Source: a virus (taxonomy: Duplodnaviria; Heunggongvirae; Uroviricota; Caudoviricetes). From it: 40,699 nucleotides of DNA. Of this stretch, positions 4,845 through 40,699 are shown one piece after another. Positions within the stretch are counted from its first letter, which is position 1, and each line of letters starts with the position of its first letter. Both the position numbers and the translations under genes were made by a program. A model generated the notes under the pieces. It was not told the DNA's origin. It searched no databases and saw nothing but the letters and a program-made list of their open reading frames with translations. The DNA is taken from IMG/VR virus record IMGVR_UViG_2511231131_000003, one strand, 5' to 3'.

Positions 4845-5255
4845 TTAGTGATTCAGGCCGTTACCGCGTCCGTCGAGAAAAACTTCCACGAGCAAATCAC
4901 GGGTATAAGTGCGCTCGATGCCGCGATGCAGATATAGCCGTCCGCGTAAATTAGCTGATGCAGTCCAGGTACCATCTTTGTGTTTGACCAGCATTCCTGG
5001 CATGACCGCACCGCGATTAACGGTCTGCGTTCCGTAATGTTGATGAACCATAAAAACTCCTGCCCGTAAGCTGGGCTGCTGAACATATATAGACTTCTGC
5101 GCGTATTCAGGCGGTGGATGGCCGCCGGTTGTCATAACTAAGCCGCCTCGTTGAAGCGACTGAGGTATGAAGTGTTGAGTTGATTTCAGCTGGTCACACC
5201 GACGTTCACGCGTCCGTTTCACCCCTCGCACTCCCCGGAGCCTGCCGAAATTCAA
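4845..5255 (-). CDS. first ORF downstream of putative pL (kil/N position); function unknown
   Basis: Open frame of 136 codons starting with TTG at 5255; in-frame ATGs give 96-, 68- or 52-aa products. The stop lies about 44 nt inside the ancestral long-gam frame, mirroring the lambda kil-gam overlap. N-proximal Arg-rich stretch ([15 protein letters not shown]). Start and identity unresolved. Confidence 0.35.
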
Positions 5256-5318
5256 GCTGCGGATCTAAGCGGTCATCGCAACGGTGAAGTTATAAATTTT
5301 GTGATACCAACATCGATG

Positions 5319-5372
5319 CAATAGCATGACAATAGCAATGGCTATTGGTGTAGTCAATAGCAATTGGTATTG
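5319..5372. promoter_or_regulatory. putative OL operator cluster and leftward promoter pL
   Basis: Repeated CAATAGC half-sites including 18-bp inverted repeat CAATAGCAATGGCTATTG (5330-5347) and CAATAGCAATTGGTATTG (5355-5372). On the minus strand, -35 TTGACT (5357-5352), 17-bp spacer, -10 TATTGT (5334-5329), pointing toward 4845-5255. A GG(T/A)ATTGATAATG block is shared with the OR region. Confidence 0.5.
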
Positions 5373-5608
5373 ATAATGTTTGATATACTTGTTCTGATTG
5401 ATAATTAAATGAATTTTTATAAAAAAGAGTATGAAGACTTATTGGTGTGGCTGAAATTTGTACAGCTTTAATGTGCCTCGTGACAGAGGGGCATCGGGTT
5501 GTGGTGAGCTCGGTAGGTTGGCAGCAAATTTAATCGAATATTGGTAGTCTGAGTTCTTATGTGTATTTTTTTTAGTCAGTTGCTAAATGATACATAAATG
5601 ACTTATTA

Positions 5609-5641
5609 GCCCCGCCATCGCTTTGTACGGGGCGTTTATTT
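5609..5641. terminator. GC-rich hairpin adjacent to the stop of the SIR2-like gene
   Basis: CCCCG-N13-CGGGG stem-loop (5610-5632) followed on the plus strand by TTTATTT; on the minus strand it lies directly 3' of the SIR2-like gene stop with an A/U-rich tail. Could terminate the repressor-SIR2 transcript or act bidirectionally. Confidence 0.35.
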
Positions 5642-7247
5642 AATTTATCTTTTCAACATTTCCATGAATCAACAAGTCGTAGGCAAGAAATAGTTTCCTA
5701 TACTGGGTTTTTAAATTGTCAACGTCGCATGTCTTGAATTGAACAAACGCTTCTTTTTTAACATAATCTTCAATCTCCTCTTTGGGGATATTTTTTATGT
5801 TCTTAATGACTATAGACAATTCTTTGTACTTTTTGAACGTTGCATCCTTTATATCTTTGATGTTGGTGTAAATTTTATTTGCATTGATTTTATCTAAGGT
5901 GATTTTATTGAGCAAGTCGTCTAGTTTTCCGTGGCGTTCAATGCGTTGATTTAGTTTTAACACATATTTAGCTGGCAAACTTAACTCTTTCAAATTACAT
6001 GAGGTTATAGTTTTTGAAAATGGAAGTTGTAATGAGTTTACTGAGCCTAATATGAAATCTATGGCTAATTTATTAGATATTTCATTTTTATTAAATAAGT
6101 AATCTTCAAGATAATTTATTTCTTTAACTTGTGTGAATACATACTTTTTATCGCCTAGAGCAACAACTAAATTTTTTCCTTGTTTAACACTTTCTTCAAG
6201 TCTGTCTAAGTCAGAAGGTGAAACCAATAGAGTATCTAAGTGCCCTTTTTCACCCTCATTAATGATAAGTGTTTTGATGGCTCTTTGATACCTTAAAACA
6301 TCATAAGGTGAGAGCCCTTCATCAACAGCACTGATCTCATCATAGATCTGTTTATAGTTATCTGTTTTAACAGATGTATATGTAATTTGTAGCTGTTGAT
6401 CGGTAATCTGTTTTGGTACTACTTCCTGTTCATTCTCTTTATATTCAATCAAAATTATTCTTTCAGCTGATTTTCGACCATCTTCTCTAGGTAGTTGTGA
6501 GGAAAAATCAGAAAGAAGTTTCTTTACATTCCTGTCAGTTAAAGAATATCCAAGAAAAACTATTGGATTTTTAATCATGTTAGATAGTATCTTGGCACTA
6601 ATGAGTATAGATTTGTTGTCATATTTTTCGTAATCATCTTTATTTATGATTATTGAGTGTGGATCCTTTATATCACCATGGATTTTGTATAACTCACTCC
6701 ATCCAATAGTATCTTCGAAAAAACCATTATTTCCAATATAGAGTTTTGGAGTTACATTTTGCTCTTGAAGTAAATTTTCTATGAAAGCATCATAATTTGT
6801 AGTGATGATTATCTTGGCCTTTTTTATTAATGTTTTAAATGATGCTAATTCATCAAGATTTACATCCTTTCTGATTGTGTTATTAGAAAATCTTTGGCAT
6901 ATAGCGTATTTAAATGGTGAAATATCTTCACTAAAAACCCTCTTGGCATCTAGTCCATTTAATTTTAATTTGCCAGTCCTAAACAATAGATTGTAATCAT
7001 TTTCAATTTTACTTGCTGCCTCTGTATAAATCTTATGATCGATATCATTATCACTGTTATTTTTATGTGATTCTTTTATTGTTAAAAGATAACTATAGAA
7101 ATCATTTGTGGGATTTGTTATTTTCCAATACTCGTTTAATAGCTCTTCCCACGTTGGGTAGTTCTCTAAATATCTTTTTGAAATGCCTGAGCCAATAAAG
7201 ACTATTGGGTAATTTTTGAATTCAAAATTTTTTTTTGACATATCCAT
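5640..7247 (-). CDS. SIR2-family (ThsA-like NADase domain) protein with uncharacterised C-terminal domain; candidate anti-phage defence protein in the rexAB position
   Basis: 535-aa ORF, markedly AT-rich relative to flanking phage genes. N-terminal ~270 aa carries SIR2_2/ThsA-type motifs: VFIGSGIS, IITTNYDAFIENLL, YKIHGDIKDPHSIIINKDDYEKY and VFLGYSLTDRNV (conserved Asn and His of the NADase site present). C-terminal ~260 aa has no motif I recognise. Same strand and immediately downstream of the CI-type repressor gene. Confidence 0.85.
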   Translation of the reverse strand: MDMSKKNFEFKNYPIVFIGSGISKRYLENYPTWEELLNEYWKITNPTNDFYSYLLTIKESHKNNSDNDIDHKIYTEAASKIENDYNLLFRTGKLKLNGLDAKRVFSEDISPFKYAICQRFSNNTIRKDVNLDELASFKTLIKKAKIIITTNYDAFIENLLQEQNVTPKLYIGNNGFFEDTIGWSELYKIHGDIKDPHSIIINKDDYEKYDNKSILISAKILSNMIKNPIVFLGYSLTDRNVKKLLSDFSSQLPREDGRKSAERIILIEYKENEQEVVPKQITDQQLQITYTSVKTDNYKQIYDEISAVDEGLSPYDVLRYQRAIKTLIINEGEKGHLDTLLVSPSDLDRLEESVKQGKNLVVALGDKKYVFTQVKEINYLEDYLFNKNEISNKLAIDFILGSVNSLQLPFSKTITSCNLKELSLPAKYVLKLNQRIERHGKLDDLLNKITLDKINANKIYTNIKDIKDATFKKYKELSIVIKNIKNIPKEEIEDYVKKEAFVQFKTCDVDNLKTQYRKLFLAYDLLIHGNVEKIN

Positions 7248-7353
7248 ATACCTTAAGCTCTGCTTGAAACATCCATTCTATAAATTATGAGGATGTCAGC
7301 ATGTCTCACCAAAACATCATCTGGTTATCTTGATGAAATCTGTCATTAATAAT

Positions 7354-8046
7354 CTACCCATGTTTTCTATATGTCTGTGGCATGCTCCCAATAACTTTCC
7401 CAAATATAAATACCCGATTCATTTCGTCTTTTTCGATCGGGTCCCATGGTGAGTAGCTCTTGTTATCAGAGATAACCAGCAGCTTATCCTTCATCATTTG
7501 CAGGCGCTTTACATGGGCTGTGTCGTCGTACAGAAACGCATAGATACCATCACCGTCGAAAGATTTAACAGTGATATCAACGAACAGAAGATCACCTGGT
7601 TCGATCGTTCCTGACATGCTGTCACCGCGTACGTTAATGATGCGGATATTTTCTGCCTTCCTGCCATCGAACATGTGACGAGCATCGTCAAACGAGTACT
7701 CAACCGAGCGTAGGACTTCTACAAACTCACGGTTGATGACACCCGGCCCAGCACTGACTTCTATATCAAGAACGTCAATCTTGAAGTATTTGGAATGGTT
7801 GACAGCAGGCTTCCCTGATTGTTGACCGTCATTTCTCATCGGGCCTATGCCTGATGAGAGCCACTCTGTTCGAACACCCAATGCATTAGCTATTTCAACA
7901 ATTTTTGTTGAGCCGCGTGCGTTGCCGCTTGTCAGTCTCCAGATTGTGGGTTGAGCTACGCCAGACGCCTTTGCAAGAGCGCCTTGAGACATTCCAGATT
8001 GTTCCATCGCTAGGTTTAAGCGATCAGCAAGAGTTTCTTTTTTCAT
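7354..8046 (-). CDS. CI-type prophage repressor (N-terminal HTH, C-terminal S24 LexA-like peptidase domain)
   Basis: ATG at 8046 (the ORF-track start at 8082 is TTG); HTH region QGALAKASGVAQPTIWRL; S24 autocleavage motifs GDSM and a downstream K; divergent from the cro-like gene across an operator-containing spacer. Not lambda cI by sequence. Confidence 0.88.
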   Translation of the reverse strand: MKKETLADRLNLAMEQSGMSQGALAKASGVAQPTIWRLTSGNARGSTKIVEIANALGVRTEWLSSGIGPMRNDGQQSGKPAVNHSKYFKIDVLDIEVSAGPGVINREFVEVLRSVEYSFDDARHMFDGRKAENIRIINVRGDSMSGTIEPGDLLFVDITVKSFDGDGIYAFLYDDTAHVKRLQMMKDKLLVISDNKSYSPWDPIEKDEMNRVFIFGKVIGSMPQTYRKHG

Positions 8047-8156
8047 AAGTTTTAATTTATACGCTTGCGTATTGATGGTCAAAACACGTTTTACTATTGA
8101 TTGGATTAATACGCATTGCTATTATCCATTCATTGTAATACCAATAGGAATTGATA
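8047..8156. promoter_or_regulatory. putative OR region with divergent promoters (PRM-like leftward, PR-like rightward)
   Basis: Rightward: -35 TTGATT (8097-8102), 17-bp spacer, -10 TATTAT (8120-8125), RBS AGGA (8146-8149), cro-like ATG at 8157. Leftward (minus strand): TTGACC, 17 bp, TAAATT ending about 7 nt before the repressor ATG, suggesting a leaderless or near-leaderless transcript as at lambda PRM. Inverted repeat ATACGCTTGCGTAT (8059-8072) lies inside the leftward promoter spacer; GCTATTA and CAATAGG half-site variants at 8118-8124 and 8142-8148. Confidence 0.55.
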
Positions 8157-8408: not shown

Positions 8409-8954
8409 ATGACTATGCAACCACTTACATACCAACAGACTAGCGGATTTAGCCCGACTGCGGTGATAAATCGTTCTCAAACAAAACAGGCGCCAGGCCA
8501 CGAAAAAATCCGTGATGCCGTTCGCGCTTGGTCGGCTGCAGATAATCAGGATGTTGTTGCCGCACTCATTGTGAATGAGTATCGGGAGCAGGGCGGCGGC
8601 ACCATCGATTTCCCTGATGATGTCAGCCGTGCACGCCAGAAGCTGTTCCGTTTCCTCGATAACAAATTCGATTCTGAAAAATACCGAAATAACGTGCGTG
8701 AACTGACCCCGGCAATTCTGGCGGTACTACCGCTGGAATATCGCGGCCACCTGGTTGAGCAGGATAGCTTCATGGCTCGGTTGGCTGAAATGGATAAGGA
8801 ACTCAGTGAGGCAAAGCAGGCGGTCATTCTCAACGCACCACGCCACCAGAAACTGAAGGAAATGAGTGAAGGTATTGTGTCGATGTTTCGTGTGGACCCG
8901 GATCTGGCTGGTCCATTAATGGCGATGGTTACCACCATGCTGGGGGCAATATGA
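8409..8954 (+). CDS. YdaT-family protein (CII-position regulator)
   Basis: 181-aa ORF directly after the cro-like gene; segment LTPAILAVLPLEYRGHL resembles the conserved core of YdaT as I recall it; stop overlaps the O start. Confidence 0.5.
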   Translation: MTMQPLTYQQTSGFSPTAVINRSQTKQAPGHEKIRDAVRAWSAADNQDVVAALIVNEYREQGGGTIDFPDDVSRARQKLFRFLDNKFDSEKYRNNVRELTPAILAVLPLEYRGHLVEQDSFMARLAEMDKELSEAKQAVILNAPRHQKLKEMSEGIVSMFRVDPDLAGPLMAMVTTMLGAI

Positions 8955-9970
8955 CAGGTTCAGAAATGGCGAAAGCCGGTCTGCGGGAACAGAGCCGACT
9001 TTCAGGTGCAAATCGTAACGCACTCATTGCGGAAGGAATTATGGCAAACACTGCTGAGATATTCAATTTTCCAGTGCCGGATGAGGCACAAAAGGAGCGG
9101 CGCGTGGCAGATCTCGATGATGGTTATACGCGCATTGCAAATGAGTTGCTGGAAGCTGTGATGCTGGCCGGATTAACACAGCACCAGCTTCTGGTCTTCC
9201 TGGCTGTCATGCGCAAAACATATGGCTTTAATAAAAAACTGGATTGGGTGAGCAACGAGCAACTTTCCGAATTGACCGGGATATTGCCGCACAAGTGTTC
9301 TTCTGCAAAAAGCGTTCTGGTAAAGCGTGGGATTCTTATTCAGAGCGGGCGGAATATCGGCATTAATAATGTGGTCAGTGAATGGTCAACATTACCCGAA
9401 TCAGGTAAGAAAAATAAAGTTTACCTGAAAGAGGTAAATTTACCTGAATCAGGTAAGAAAAGTTTACCCAAATCAGGTAAAGGCGTTTACCCGAATCAGG
9501 TAAACACAAAAGACAAACTAACAAAAGACAATATAAAACCTTTTTCGTCCGAGAATTCTGGCGAATCCTCTGACCAACCAGAAAACGATCTTCCTGTGGA
9601 GAAACCAGATGCTGCAATTCAGAGCGGCAGCAGGTGGGGGACAGCAGAAGACCTGACCGCCGCAGAGTGGATGTTTGACATGGTGAAGACCATCGCGCCA
9701 TCAGCCAGAAAACCGAATTTTGCAGGGTGGGCTAACGATATCCGCCTGATGCGTGAACGTGACGGACGTAACCACCGCGACATGTGCGTGCTGTTCCGCT
9801 GGGCATGCCAGGACAACTTCTGGTCCGGTAACGTGCTAAGTCCGGCCAAACTCCGCGACAAGTGGACCCAACTCGAAATCAACCGTAACAAGCAACAGGC
9901 TGGCGTGACAGCCGGAAAATCAAAACTGGACCTGACAAACACTGACTGGATTTATGGGGTGGATTTATGA
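8951..9970 (+). CDS. O: replication initiator O (origin-binding; N-terminal domain not lambda-type, C-terminal domain lambda-like)
   Basis: Contains the ori iterons within the coding sequence; C-terminus ...FWSGNVLSPAKLRDKWTQLEINRNKQQAGVTAGKSKLDLTNTDWIYGVDL matches lambda O. The start may instead be the ATG at 9041 (MANTAEIFNF..., homologous to the lambda O N-terminus MTNTAKILNF). Confidence 0.88.
   Translation: MTGSEMAKAGLREQSRLSGANRNALIAEGIMANTAEIFNFPVPDEAQKERRVADLDDGYTRIANELLEAVMLAGLTQHQLLVFLAVMRKTYGFNKKLDWVSNEQLSELTGILPHKCSSAKSVLVKRGILIQSGRNIGINNVVSEWSTLPESGKKNKVYLKEVNLPESGKKSLPKSGKGVYPNQVNTKDKLTKDNIKPFSSENSGESSDQPENDLPVEKPDAAIQSGSRWGTAEDLTAAEWMFDMVKTIAPSARKPNFAGWANDIRLMRERDGRNHRDMCVLFRWACQDNFWSGNVLSPAKLRDKWTQLEINRNKQQAGVTAGKSKLDLTNTDWIYGVDL
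9392..9503. repeat. replication origin iterons (ori) inside O, followed by an A/T-rich segment (9504-9540)
   Basis: Five copies of a 17-18 bp unit TTACC(C/T)GAA(T/A)(C/G)AGGTAA with internal dyad symmetry (9392-9408, 9421-9437, 9439-9456, 9463-9480, 9486-9503), then ACACAAAAGACAAACTAACAAAAGACAATATAAAACC. Architecture parallels lambda ori. Confidence 0.8.
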
Positions 9971-10668
9971 AAAACATCGCCGCACAGATGGTTAACTTTG
10001 ACCGTGAGCAGATGCGCCGGATCGCCAATAACATGCCGGAACAGTACGACGAAAAGCCGCAGGTACAGTTGGTAGCGCAGATCATCAACGGTGTGTTCAG
10101 CCAGTTACTGGCAACTTTCCCGGCGAGCCTGGCTAACCGGGACCAGAACGAACTGAACGAAATCCGCCGCCAGTGGGTTCTGGCTTTCCGGGAAAACGGG
10201 ATCACCACAATGGAACAGGTTAACGCAGGAATGCGCGTAGCCCGTCGGCAGAATCGACCATTTCTGCCATCACCCGGGCAGTTTGTTGCATGGTGCCGGG
10301 AAGAAGCATCCGTTATCGCCGGACTGCCAAGCGTCAGCGAGCTGGTTGATATGGTTTACGAGTATTGCCGGAAGCGAGGCCTGTATCCGGATGCAGAGTC
10401 TTATCCGTGGAAATCGAACGCGCACTACTGGCTGGTTACCAACCTGTACCAGAACATGCGGGCCAATGCGCTGACTGACGCGGAATTACGACGCAAGGCT
10501 GCCGATGAACTGACCTGTATGGCAGCGCGAATTAACCGTGGTGAGACGATACCTGAACCAGTAAAACAACTTCCTGTCATGGGCGGCAGACCTCTAAATC
10601 GTGTTCAGGCGCTGGCGAAGATCGCAGAAATTAAAGCTAAGTTCGGACTGAAAGGAGCAAGTGTATGA
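9967..10668 (+). CDS. P: replication protein P (DnaB helicase loader)
   Basis: 233-aa product matches lambda P essentially end to end (MKNIAAQMVNFDREQMRRIANNMPEQYDEKPQVQ...). Confidence 0.95.
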   Translation: MKNIAAQMVNFDREQMRRIANNMPEQYDEKPQVQLVAQIINGVFSQLLATFPASLANRDQNELNEIRRQWVLAFRENGITTMEQVNAGMRVARRQNRPFLPSPGQFVAWCREEASVIAGLPSVSELVDMVYEYCRKRGLYPDAESYPWKSNAHYWLVTNLYQNMRANALTDAELRRKAADELTCMAARINRGETIPEPVKQLPVMGGRPLNRVQALAKIAEIKAKFGLKGASV

Positions 10669-10949
10669 CGGGCGAAGAGGCAATTATTCATTACCTGGGG
10701 ACGCATAATAGCTTCTGTGCGCCGGACGTTGCCGCGCTAACAGGCGCAACAGTAACCAGCATAAATCAGGCCGCGGCTAAAATGGCACGGGCAGGTCTTC
10801 TGGTTATCGAAGGTAAGGTCTGGCGAACGGTGTATTACCGGTTTGCTACCAAGGAAGAACGGGAAGGAAAGGTGAGCACGAATATGATTTTTAAGGAGTG
10901 TCGCCAGAGTGCCGCGATGAAACGGGTATTGTTGGTATACACAACTTAG
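10665..10949 (+). CDS. ren: Ren (Rex exclusion protein homologue)
   Basis: 94-aa product matches lambda Ren (MTGKEAIIHYLGTHNSFCAPDVAALTGATVTSINQAAAKMARAG...). Confidence 0.9.
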   Translation: MTGEEAIIHYLGTHNSFCAPDVAALTGATVTSINQAAAKMARAGLLVIEGKVWRTVYYRFATKEEREGKVSTNMIFKECRQSAAMKRVLLVYTT

Positions 10950-11125
10950 CATCGAAGGCCTATTGTTTTCGACAGGAGGCCATCGAAATGACACTATGGT
11001 ACCGTCTTTACCCACCGCCTTCTGCTAAGTTTAGGAATACAAGATGTTGCTGCCGTTAAAAAATAGTCGTAATTTCTATTAGAATTTGGGCAATATAACC
11101 AGCACATAGATAAGGGAGTCGTTTT

Positions 11126-11374
11126 ATGCACGAACTATTTGTGCTGGTTTTGAGCACCTGTGCTAGCCTCAGCAATATGTCAGGTTGTTCAGTGGACGTA
11201 GTGAATGTCAACACCACAAAAGAGCCGGTAAACGTCTTTTATAGCAGGAAAGACTGCGAAGAAAGCATGAAAAACATTATGCTAAATCATGCTCTATACC
11301 ATGAAGTATCAGGCAGAGAGCCATATATGGCAAAGTGCGAACAAGTATTTGTCTCAAAAAGTTTAATGAAATAA
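11126..11374 (+). CDS. hypothetical small protein with hydrophobic N-terminus and 4-5 Cys (possible secreted/periplasmic protein)
   Basis: 82-aa ORF in an AT-rich insertion; ATG preceded by AAGGGAG RBS; N-terminal MHELFVLVLSTCASLS is signal-peptide-like (a weak lipobox at best). Confidence 0.45.
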   Translation: MHELFVLVLSTCASLSNMSGCSVDVVNVNTTKEPVNVFYSRKDCEESMKNIMLNHALYHEVSGREPYMAKCEQVFVSKSLMK

Positions 11375-11417
11375 TTGGCCAAAAACGACATATAACAAAC
11401 TCTTATAGGAGCTTAAC

Positions 11418-11699
11418 GTGGAAGATTACTTAGTTTTTGGTTTAGGTTATGAAGGCGATATAAAGAACGATGAAGCAGGGCTTGATAAGATAAGCGTGGT
11501 AACGAAATCGGTAGTGCGTTCTACCAATTCCAATGAACCAGTGGTTTACCAAGTGACTGAGTTTAAAGAATTTAATGTTGTGAGACATCAAGCGTTTGAT
11601 AGTGAATACTACAACATAGCATTCGATGTCTTACCATCCCGCGTCCGTATTGATGCTGCAATCCGTAAATATCACCCCAAGAAATCCTCCTCAGCTTAG
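11418..11699 (+). CDS. hypothetical protein
   Basis: 93-aa ORF, GTG start at 11418 with AGGAG RBS 8 nt upstream; AT-rich; no motif recognised. Confidence 0.4.
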   Translation: MEDYLVFGLGYEGDIKNDEAGLDKISVVTKSVVRSTNSNEPVVYQVTEFKEFNVVRHQAFDSEYYNIAFDVLPSRVRIDAAIRKYHPKKSSSA

Positions 11700-11887
11700 T
11701 AAGCTTTGATTTTCCATTATCAACCAGCAATAATAATGTCCTCGGAGCCTGAACAACTCCGGTGACTTCTGCGCTAAACGGGGACGTTTATGCGCACATA
11801 CAATCCAAACTCTCTTCTCCCTTCACTGATGCAGAAATGCACCTGTGGTTCTTTGCATCCAACGTTTGACCTCTGCGGAGGTGAAGC

Positions 11888-12343
11888 GTGAACCTCCCAC
11901 AAGACGGTATCAAATTGCATCGCGGTAACTTCACTGCTATCGGCCAGCAGATCCAGCCTTATCTGGAGAACGGAAAATGCTTTCGCATGGTGCTTAAACC
12001 GTGGCGTGAGAAACGCAGTCTTTCCCAGAATGCACTCAGCCACATGTGGTACAGCGAAATCAGTGAATACCTCATCAGCAGGGGGAAATCGTTCGCTACT
12101 TCAGCATGGGTAAAAGATGCTCTCAAACACACATACCTCGGTTATGAAACCAAGGACCTGGTTGATGTCGTAACCGGCGAAATCACTACTATCCAGTCGT
12201 TACGCCATACCTCCGATCTTGGTACCGGAGAGATGTATGTCTTCCTGTGTAAGGTTGAAGCCTGGGCGATGAATATTGGCTGCCACCTGACTATTCCACA
12301 GAGCTGCGAGTTCCAGCTGCTGCGCGACAAGCAGGAGGCGTAA
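11888..12343 (+). CDS. ybcN: YbcN-like protein (DLP12 ybcN homologue; NinB-type RSLSQN motif)
   Basis: 151 aa, GTG start with GGAGG RBS; near-identical to E. coli DLP12 YbcN as I recall it ([19 protein letters not shown]...[19 protein letters not shown]...). Confidence 0.8.
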
Positions 12344-40115: not shown

Positions 40116-40699
40116 TGGCATTCAGAATGAGTGAACAACCACGGACCATAAAAATTTATAATCTGCTGGCCGGAACTAATGAATTTATTGGTGAAGGTGA
40201 CGCATATATTCCGCCTCATACAGGTCTGCCAGCAAACAGTACCTATATTGCACCGCCAGATATTCCTGCTGGCTTTGTGGCCGTTTTCAACAGTGATGAG
40301 GGATCGTGGCATCTCGTTGAAGACCATCGGGGAAAAACCGTCTATGACGTGGCTTCCGGCGACGCGTTATTTATTTCTGAACTTGGCCCATTACCGGAAA
40401 ATGTCACCTGGTTATCCCCGGAAGGGGAGTTTCAGAAGTGGAACGGCACAGCCTGGGTGAAAGATGCAGAAGCAGAAAAACTGTTCCGGATCCGGGAGGC
40501 GGAAGAAACAAAAAACAGCCTGATGCAGGTAGCCAGTGAGCATATTGCGCCACTTCAGGATGCTGTAGATCTGGAAATCGCAACGGAGGAAGAAACCTCA
40601 TTGCTGGAAGCCTGGAAAAAGTATCGGGTGTTGCTGAACCGTGTTGATACATCAACTGCACCTGATATTGAGTGGCCTACGAACCCTGTCAGGGAGTAA
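40115..40699 (+). CDS. tfa: tail fibre assembly chaperone Tfa
   Basis: 194-aa ORF whose ATG overlaps the stf stop (TAATG); product matches lambda Tfa as I recall it; stop codon is the last 3 nt of the window. Confidence 0.93.

Follow-up and report, generated by a model that had tools for sequence, protein, structure and literature searches.

The 40,699-nucleotide (nt) stretch of viral DNA recorded in IMG/VR as IMGVR_UViG_2511231131_000003 (hereafter the window) is a lambdoid prophage at the tRNA-Arg/DLP12 site. Between its ren-like gene and the ylcH-ybcN genes it carries a 754-bp AT-rich unit with two small open reading frames (ORFs), ORF82 (11126-11374, + strand, ATG start, 82 amino acids [aa]) and ORF93 (11418-11699, + strand, GTG start, 93 aa). 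We read this unit as mosaic cargo made of independent accessory genes, of which ORF82 would be envelope-targeted and protective and ORF93 would be cytoplasmic. Taken as a whole, we give this reading about even chances, and its parts differ in strength. That the two genes are independent cargo of the early operon is likely. The envelope targeting of ORF82, deduced from its N-terminus, falls slightly short of an even bet, and an exclusion- or immunity-type function for this protein can be put forward only tentatively.

The limits of the unit were defined from its composition and from homology. A preliminary description of this DNA had seen about 0.9 kb of AT-rich sequence inserted between ren and ybcN. 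Both the insertion between these two genes and its composition were borne out, with a guanine-plus-cytosine (GC) content of 0.399 for 10950-11703 versus 0.516 for the whole window. GC content is 0.37-0.40 across 11100-11700, with flanks at about 0.51, and only 7.6% of 754-bp windows are as GC-poor as the unit. The low-GC stretches of the prophage form three islands, namely the SIR2/cI region, the ORF82-ORF93 unit and the bor-ybcV region. The extent of the insert had to be shortened, however, as the last 184 bp (11704-11887) belong to the conserved ylcH-ybcN module. A megablast search of 50,697 phage records matched only the right end of the region, from 11698, 11704, 11719 or 11743 to 11887. 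Phage homology being restricted to the right end, the foreign unit therefore spans about 10950-11703 and ends right after the stop codon of ORF93. The contrast drawn earlier with the short spacer of lambda was correct, since only 73 nt separate ren from ninB there (lambda 40571-40643); this spacer carries the tR2 hairpin and its T-run. An Rfam scan of the region found no RNA family.

On the left side, homology with Enterobacter prophages starts at about 11046 (alignment A3). The leader shared with them (11046-11125, + strand) comprises the last ~18 nt of the Enterobacter upstream gene, whose product ends in AAVKK, followed by a promoter-like site and the ORF82 Shine-Dalgarno sequence. The 96 nt that precede it (10950-11045, + strand) exist in the E. 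coli version only and show no similarity to the Enterobacter copies. Wherever this segment was seen, namely in 88 E. coli genomes and five viral contigs but in none of the species-representative genomes, the cassette accompanied it, and a degenerate pattern search found no other context for it. Behind a strong AGGAGG (10974-10979), it contains a 23-codon ORF (10988-11059, MTLWYRLYPPPSAKFRNTRCCCR) whose stop lies in what is left of the 3' part of the Enterobacter upstream gene. We read the segment with its small ORF as a probable scar of recombination.

The two ORFs noted in the preliminary description are real genes. The ratio of nonsynonymous to synonymous substitution rates (dN/dS) among E. 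coli and Enterobacter copies is 0.13-0.20 for ORF82 and 0.03-0.19 for ORF93, indicating purifying selection on each. The ribosome-binding sites described for them are present: AAGGGAG (11112-11118) lies 7 nt 5' of the ORF82 ATG, and AGGAG (11407-11411) lies 6 nt 5' of the ORF93 GTG, a start codon that is ATG in the Enterobacter copies. The two genes are on the same strand, separated by a gap of 43 nt, without translational coupling.

To describe the distribution of the unit, complete E. coli genomes were searched, and 89 of 5426 were found to carry it. All copies but one (88/89) are at least 99% identical and belong to O157:H7, O55:H7 and a few commensals, while strain XJ5.2 has an Enterobacter-type copy with 82% identity. 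The stretch 10950-11887 is 100% identical to that of E. coli O55:H7 strains DEC5D and TB182A. At least three prophage backgrounds host the unit, namely the argU/DLP12-site phage of O55:H7, the Stx1a (Shiga toxin) phage in 644-PT8 and an Stx-like phage without stx; the early module SIR2-repressor-O-P-ren travels with it in three of three O55:H7/O157 prophage backgrounds examined. Enterobacter lambdoid prophages also carry both genes, always directly 5' of the ninB/ybcN module. Elsewhere, the same ylcH-ybcN module is preceded by other genes, a 119-aa hypothetical protein gene in IdasGreatGrand and an alpha/beta hydrolase gene on the opposite strand in Lambda_4C10. The slot upstream of ylcH-ybcN is thus a recombination hot spot with conserved borders. 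The deviant GC content, the variable content of this slot in other phages and the presence in 89 of 5426 E. coli genomes agree with the earlier proposal of horizontally exchanged cargo between conserved modules. We propose that the unit sits as mosaic cargo in a swap-prone slot between the O-P-ren replication module and the ylcH-ybcN recombination module, and that it would have been acquired by recombination from Enterobacter-type lambdoid phages.

Relatives of ORF82 are rare. Nine close relatives were found among 5.8 billion proteins, and running HMMER exhaustively against 1.84 billion cluster representatives yielded just one more credible relative (P0031, 39% identity). A third clade was found by tblastn on plasmids, as an 89-aa ORF that is unannotated in most records and present in 24-25 plasmids of Klebsiella, Enterobacter, Raoultella and E. 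coli, for example in the Klebsiella plasmid OW848920 (L028:1300-1569). The carriers are mostly cryptic ColE1-like plasmids of 3.4-3.8 kb, with only rop and a gene for a helix-turn-helix (HTH) protein besides the 89-aa ORF; the ORF is also found in the pIP843 backbone (NC_005015, 701-970) and in larger co-integrates. Beside rop and the HTH protein gene, it is the sole non-replication ORF kept across the cryptic ColE1-like Klebsiella plasmids examined. Its GC content is again low, 0.30 as against 0.46. The plasmid protein shares 28% identity with ORF82 over 99% of the length, without gaps (tblastn, E 2e-6), and the two are matched by hhalign with a probability of 97% (E 2.4e-11). It shares 36% identity with P0031 (BLASTP, E 4e-19). 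Like ORF82, it has four invariant Cys and the same N-terminal layout; unlike ORF82, it is 7 residues longer and is encoded beside a ColE1-type origin, without ORF93 or phage genes. Judged from these alignments, the 89-aa plasmid ORF is a true and previously unnoticed homologue of ORF82, an assignment that we regard as solid. Scans of genomes, viral contigs and metagenome contigs found no ORF82 clade beyond these three.

ORF93 has its own, different set of relatives. The protein is slightly acidic and beta-rich, lacks a signal sequence and belongs to PHROG 16870 (E 9e-64), a family of unknown function. All relatives found come from prophages of Enterobacter or, at ~32% identity, of Klebsiella. 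In the commonest Enterobacter layout, the gene directly 5' of ORF93 is not ORF82 but a 79-aa helical DUF2767/FumD-like gene, a pairing found in L006 (gene at L006:7720-7959), L007, L009, L010 and 19 similar places. In Klebsiella, a DNA methylase gene precedes the ORF93-like genes, and no ORF82 is nearby. Conversely, the ORF82 relative P0031 is encoded on a phage-like contig ahead of an unrelated 82-aa gene (phrog_28488) and a theta-like gene, and the gene just 3' of it reaches an hhalign probability of only 0.2% against the ORF93 profile. No ORF93 relatives were found on plasmids; a 105-aa Cys-rich plasmid ORF considered as an ORF93 analogue was rejected at an hhalign probability of only 6%. 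The separate occurrence of ORF82 and ORF93 relatives therefore argues against an obligate toxin/immunity or toxin/antitoxin pair. We picture ORF93 as a separate cytoplasmic protein, without catalytic motif, that would bind some host or phage protein.

The ORF82 product has a short hydrophobic stretch at its N-terminus, followed by small polar residues and the lipobox-like M-S-G-C21, and its Cys at positions 12, 21, 44 and 71 (C-x8-C-x22-C-x26-C) are all invariant. The columns invariant in all three clades are M1, C12, C21, N27, N36, F38, C44, N54, Y58, G63 and C71 (alignment A5). The signal-like character of the N-terminus, remarked on before, was assessed by comparing the 10-residue Kyte-Doolittle peak among 55 proteins of the same chromosomal locus. 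The peak of ORF82 (2.54) ranks 6th of 55. It lies among those of the proteins that we take to be exported or membrane-bound (RzpD, FimC, holin, FimH, Bor, SfmF, YbcI and FimA) and above those of all presumed cytoplasmic proteins (highest 1.84), the localisations being presumed from the protein families. The local benchmark thus upheld the earlier remark, and a lipobox-like motif was present in Bor and ORF82 only. The residues before Cys21 are M-S-G, G-S-A and I-A-S in the three clades, the plasmid clade showing the canonical I-A-S-C, and positions -1 (G/A/S) and -2 (S/S/A) are in the allowed lipobox set in all of them. PROSITE PS51257 describes a Cys at position 15-35 with small residues at -1 [AGS] and -2, a hydrophobic h-region, a Lys or Arg among the first seven residues, and allowed residues at -3 and -4. 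Set against this description as we understand it, the Cys position, the -1 and -2 residues and the h-region of ORF82 fit.

Searches for known families gave little for either protein. Neither ORF82 nor ORF93 matched Pfam, NCBIfam or PADLOC at E <= 1, PHROGs hold no family for ORF82 (weak match of the signal region to phrog_18517, E 0.015), and sequence and profile searches of the PDB returned nothing meaningful for either ORF, with no match for ORF82 at E <= 10. Fold searches with the low-confidence models found nothing significant (for ORF82, Foldseek versus PDB, E > 1), and the RefSeq accessions were not found in the literature library searched. At the DNA level, the first 66 nt of ORF82 (11126-11191) differ from six Enterobacter-type copies at 2-6 positions versus 29-43 in the remaining 183 nt (Fisher p 0.0003-0.03 in the six comparisons). 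An antisense ORF (11056-11217) was considered as the cause of this conserved 5' end and discarded, as the Enterobacter copies carry a 1-nt indel.

How the two genes are expressed was examined from the signals around them. The promoter-like element reported upstream of ORF82 does exist as a sequence, TTAAAA-18-TAGAAT (11056-11085), with a 9/12 match to the consensus, but its status as a promoter of the unit is not supported. Three such 9/12 sites were found in the region versus 2.4 +/- 1.7 in shuffled sequences. In the Enterobacter copy L003 the site falls below threshold and was not recovered, and the remote locus L013 has no such site on the coding strand; in the Enterobacter copy, the upstream gene stops only 58 nt before ORF82. 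No terminator-like site was found after ren or after ORF93 (11700-11890 included), and comparison of 10950-11125 with lambda 40571-40643 revealed no counterpart of tR2 3' of ren. The only terminator-like match in the region is a hairpin with a T-run in the first codons of ORF82 (11128-11154), which we rejected as a displaced tR2 because it is weak (-6.6 kcal/mol) and such matches occur at chance frequency. The lambda nin region, between P and Q, is transcribed from pR as a delayed-early segment under N antitermination and is dispensable (PMC10695390). Given the early-right strand, the lack of a conserved promoter of their own and the lack of a flanking terminator, pR read-through is therefore most likely: ORF82 and ORF93 would ride the N-antiterminated delayed-early operon and be made as delayed-early proteins, as are the lambda nin genes. 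Autonomous expression of the unit in a lysogen is less likely, and we found nothing to support it.

The favoured reading goes one step further for ORF82. We suggest that the protein would be processed before Cys21 to give a lipid-anchored mature form of ~62 aa, in which the invariant Cys44 and Cys71 would form one disulfide. This protein could mask or block an envelope component against a superinfecting phage or a bacteriocin, following the logic of Llp, Cor and TraT. The occurrence of the family in phages and minimal plasmids suggests a function that helps the mobile element via the host cell, and since the family is kept on cryptic ColE1-like Klebsiella plasmids, we infer a cell-protective role benefiting the element. 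Of the functions listed in the preliminary description, a secreted lysogenic-conversion factor or an exclusion protein are both possible. The most specific form of the proposal is doubtful; in it, ORF82 would found a new family of small envelope-anchored Cys proteins with an atypical signal without basic residues, which lambdoid prophages and cryptic ColE1-like plasmids alike would carry to shield their host, for instance by masking an outer-membrane receptor against superinfecting phages or bacteriocins, so that a protein unrelated to Llp, Cor and TraT would do similar work.

Several observations weigh against the favoured reading. ORF82 departs from PS51257 in two respects, the absence of Lys and Arg from its n-region and the Asn at -4. 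The n-regions of the three clades (MHE, MHE and MPY) contain no Lys or Arg in any case, and the net charge of that of ORF82 is -1 versus +2 for FimA, FimC, FimH, SfmF and Bor. The invariant Cys12 sits inside the putative signal peptide, and residues 1-21 are the best-conserved part of the protein; cleaved signal peptides are seldom conserved in this way, and a Cys4 site in the cytoplasm would account for it. A close variant (P0007) has Asp at -1. The AlphaFold2 (AF2) models of the two ORFs are poor, with predicted local distance difference test (pLDDT) values of 50 and 61. PHROG and PDB comparisons, and Foldseek run with the low-confidence model, revealed no resemblance of ORF82 to Llp, Cor, TraT or Bor, in sequence or in fold. 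Nor does it neighbour a receptor-binding gene; each of the 23 close-clade loci examined has ORF82 in the nin region, with ren on one side and ylcH-ybcN on the other. Having neither the sequence, nor the fold, nor the gene linkage of Llp and Cor, ORF82 belongs to neither family. As for the independence of the two genes, ORF93 comes next after ORF82 in every one of the 23 close-clade loci, one of which is partial. We attribute this constant order to recent common ancestry, and a functional link between the two genes is conceivable. Lastly, the window prophage is probably defective: in the identical DEC5D prophage, RefSeq records broken genes for the tape-measure protein (internal stop), nohD (frameshift) and an N6-adenine methyltransferase (frameshift), which correspond to 28140-30701, 17793-18337 and 2298-2854 of the window.

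A serious rival to envelope targeting is that ORF82 stays in the cytoplasm, where its four Cys would hold a metal or a cluster, both genes then being intracellular early host-takeover or anti-defence factors that would serve a phage or plasmid on its arrival in a new cell. We hold this to be unlikely on balance, yet it explains several features well. All four Cys, Cys12 included, are invariant across clades of only 28-39% identity, the N-terminus is the best-conserved part and has no basic n-region residue in any clade, AF2 makes residues 3-12 a beta-strand (with low confidence), and both genes are placed in the early operon. Genes for anti-restriction and anti-defence, moreover, are typically found on phages and plasmids alike. 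The hydrophobic peak, however, exceeds that of every presumed cytoplasmic protein of the benchmark, the singly spaced Cys are unlike known zinc knuckles, and the -1 and -2 residues before Cys21 remain compatible with a lipobox; an anti-defence role has no family match, to anti-defence proteins or otherwise, on its side. Less probable still is a classical moron. The unit would then have a promoter of its own that is active while the lysogen is repressed, and it would give the cell a trait of lysogenic conversion, for instance through a surface lipoprotein like Bor. The insertion between genes that are adjacent in lambda, a deviant composition like that of the bor and SIR2 islands, the strong ribosome-binding sites and the 9/12 sigma-70-like site 40 nt upstream all suit a moron, and the plasmid relatives must use a local promoter. 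That site is nevertheless at chance frequency and below threshold in the Enterobacter copies, no terminator follows ORF93, and the orientation is that of pR.

Two further explanations concern the genes as a pair and as relics. If ORF82 and ORF93 formed a coupled system (toxin/antitoxin, toxin/immunity, or secreted effector and chaperone), one would understand why they are adjacent, on one strand, 43 nt apart and in the same order in 23 of 23 close-clade loci. We nonetheless consider such a system very improbable, as ORF93 is more often beside the unrelated DUF2767-like gene, the remote ORF82 clades lack ORF93, the remote ORF93 clades lack ORF82, no Pfam, NCBIfam or PADLOC family is matched and translational coupling is absent. 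The toxin/immunity-like pair of the preliminary description is accordingly not supported, the genes occurring separately and matching no toxin/antitoxin or defence family. That the ORFs are non-functional remnants in a decaying prophage is hardly credible, in spite of the broken tape-measure, nohD and methylase genes of the identical DEC5D prophage and of a left junction that resembles a recombination scar: dN/dS values range from 0.03 to 0.20, both frames are intact in all loci except the one partial copy, and Stx1a and Stx-like prophages carry the unit as well.

The flanks of the unit are conserved, and the + strand gene order is O-P-ren-ORF82-ORF93-ylcH-ybcN-ninE-ybcO-rusA-ylcG-Q. O (8951-9970, + strand) and P (9967-10668, + strand) precede the ren-like gene (10665-10949, + strand), which forms the left conserved flank outside the insert; its 94-aa product belongs to PHROG 142 (Ren-like exclusion protein, E 4.6e-40) and shares 93% identity with lambda Ren. 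On the right, the leader of the ylcH-ybcN module and the start of ylcH (11704-11887, + strand), also outside the insert, are 92-94% identical to phage 82 (X92588) and other phages, the identity running from 11704/11719 onward. This module of phage 82/DLP12 was found in 2825 E. coli records and 20 phage records. The X92588 entry annotates the stretch with putative -35 and -10 sequences, a repeat termed 'possible regulator-binding site' and orf33. The gene ylcH/orf33 (11790-11891, + strand) has 33 codons and was overlooked in the preliminary description; a literature search by its name turned up nothing relevant. The right conserved flank is ybcN (11888-12343, + strand), a NinB/Orf-type gene of 151 aa (PHROG 72, E 2.9e-51) named 'DNA base-flipping protein YbcN' in RefSeq. 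A promoter-like TTGATT-17-AATAAT (11706-11734) in the leader is kept in the Enterobacter copy L003. The leader also has hairpins at 11738-11766 and 11770-11796, and its predicted fold is more stable than those of shuffled sequences (z = -2.9). Both the start codon of ylcH and its ribosome-binding site are sequestered in the second hairpin, and the ylcH stop codon overlaps the GTG start of ybcN (GTGA).

Two other elements of the window were recorded. Within a low-GC island (5075-7829), the - strand encodes a 535-aa SIR2-family protein (5640-7247) next to the gene for a cI-like repressor (7354-8082); this protein is likely a defence factor that the prophage carries as cargo. The other is a full-length Rfam match to the small RNA IS009 (RF02111) at 40458-40656 (+ strand), close to the tail-fibre end of the window, which scores 229 bits versus a gathering threshold of 117.

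Prophages of the O157:H7/O55:H7 lineage, an Stx1a phage among them, carry the unit in their early region. An exclusion, anti-defence or envelope function, if true, could thus alter phage traffic and the fitness of lysogens in this important pathogen. The 3.4-kb Klebsiella plasmid offers a simple experimental handle on a protein family that is described in no database.

Compared with known systems, the unit combines traits of several. Like the lambda nin genes (ren and ninB-ninI), it lies between P/ren and Q on the pR strand, is made of small packed ORFs and has recombined at its flanks; unlike them, it encodes no homologue of a lambda nin protein or of a named PHROG, and tR2 is missing. With morons such as lambda bor, lom and HK97 gp15, in the definition that reportedly goes back to Juhala and Hendrix, it shares the position as extra DNA between genes adjacent in relatives, the deviant composition and a possible envelope protein, and the bor of the window itself lies in a comparable low-GC island. 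It differs from morons in having no promoter above chance and no terminator, and its orientation and spacing fit read-through of the early operon. T5 Llp and phi80/N15 Cor are superinfection-exclusion lipoproteins that mask receptors, and TraT is a surface-exclusion lipoprotein of plasmids; Llp is small (~60 aa), is made early and contains a disulfide. If processed at Cys21, ORF82 would resemble Llp, Cor and TraT in being a mature lipoprotein of ~60 aa with one disulfide, expressed early and borne by both phages and plasmids. The unit as such is ordinary lambdoid mosaic cargo with two ORFans, in which the ORF82 family shared by phages and plasmids is only a mild surprise.

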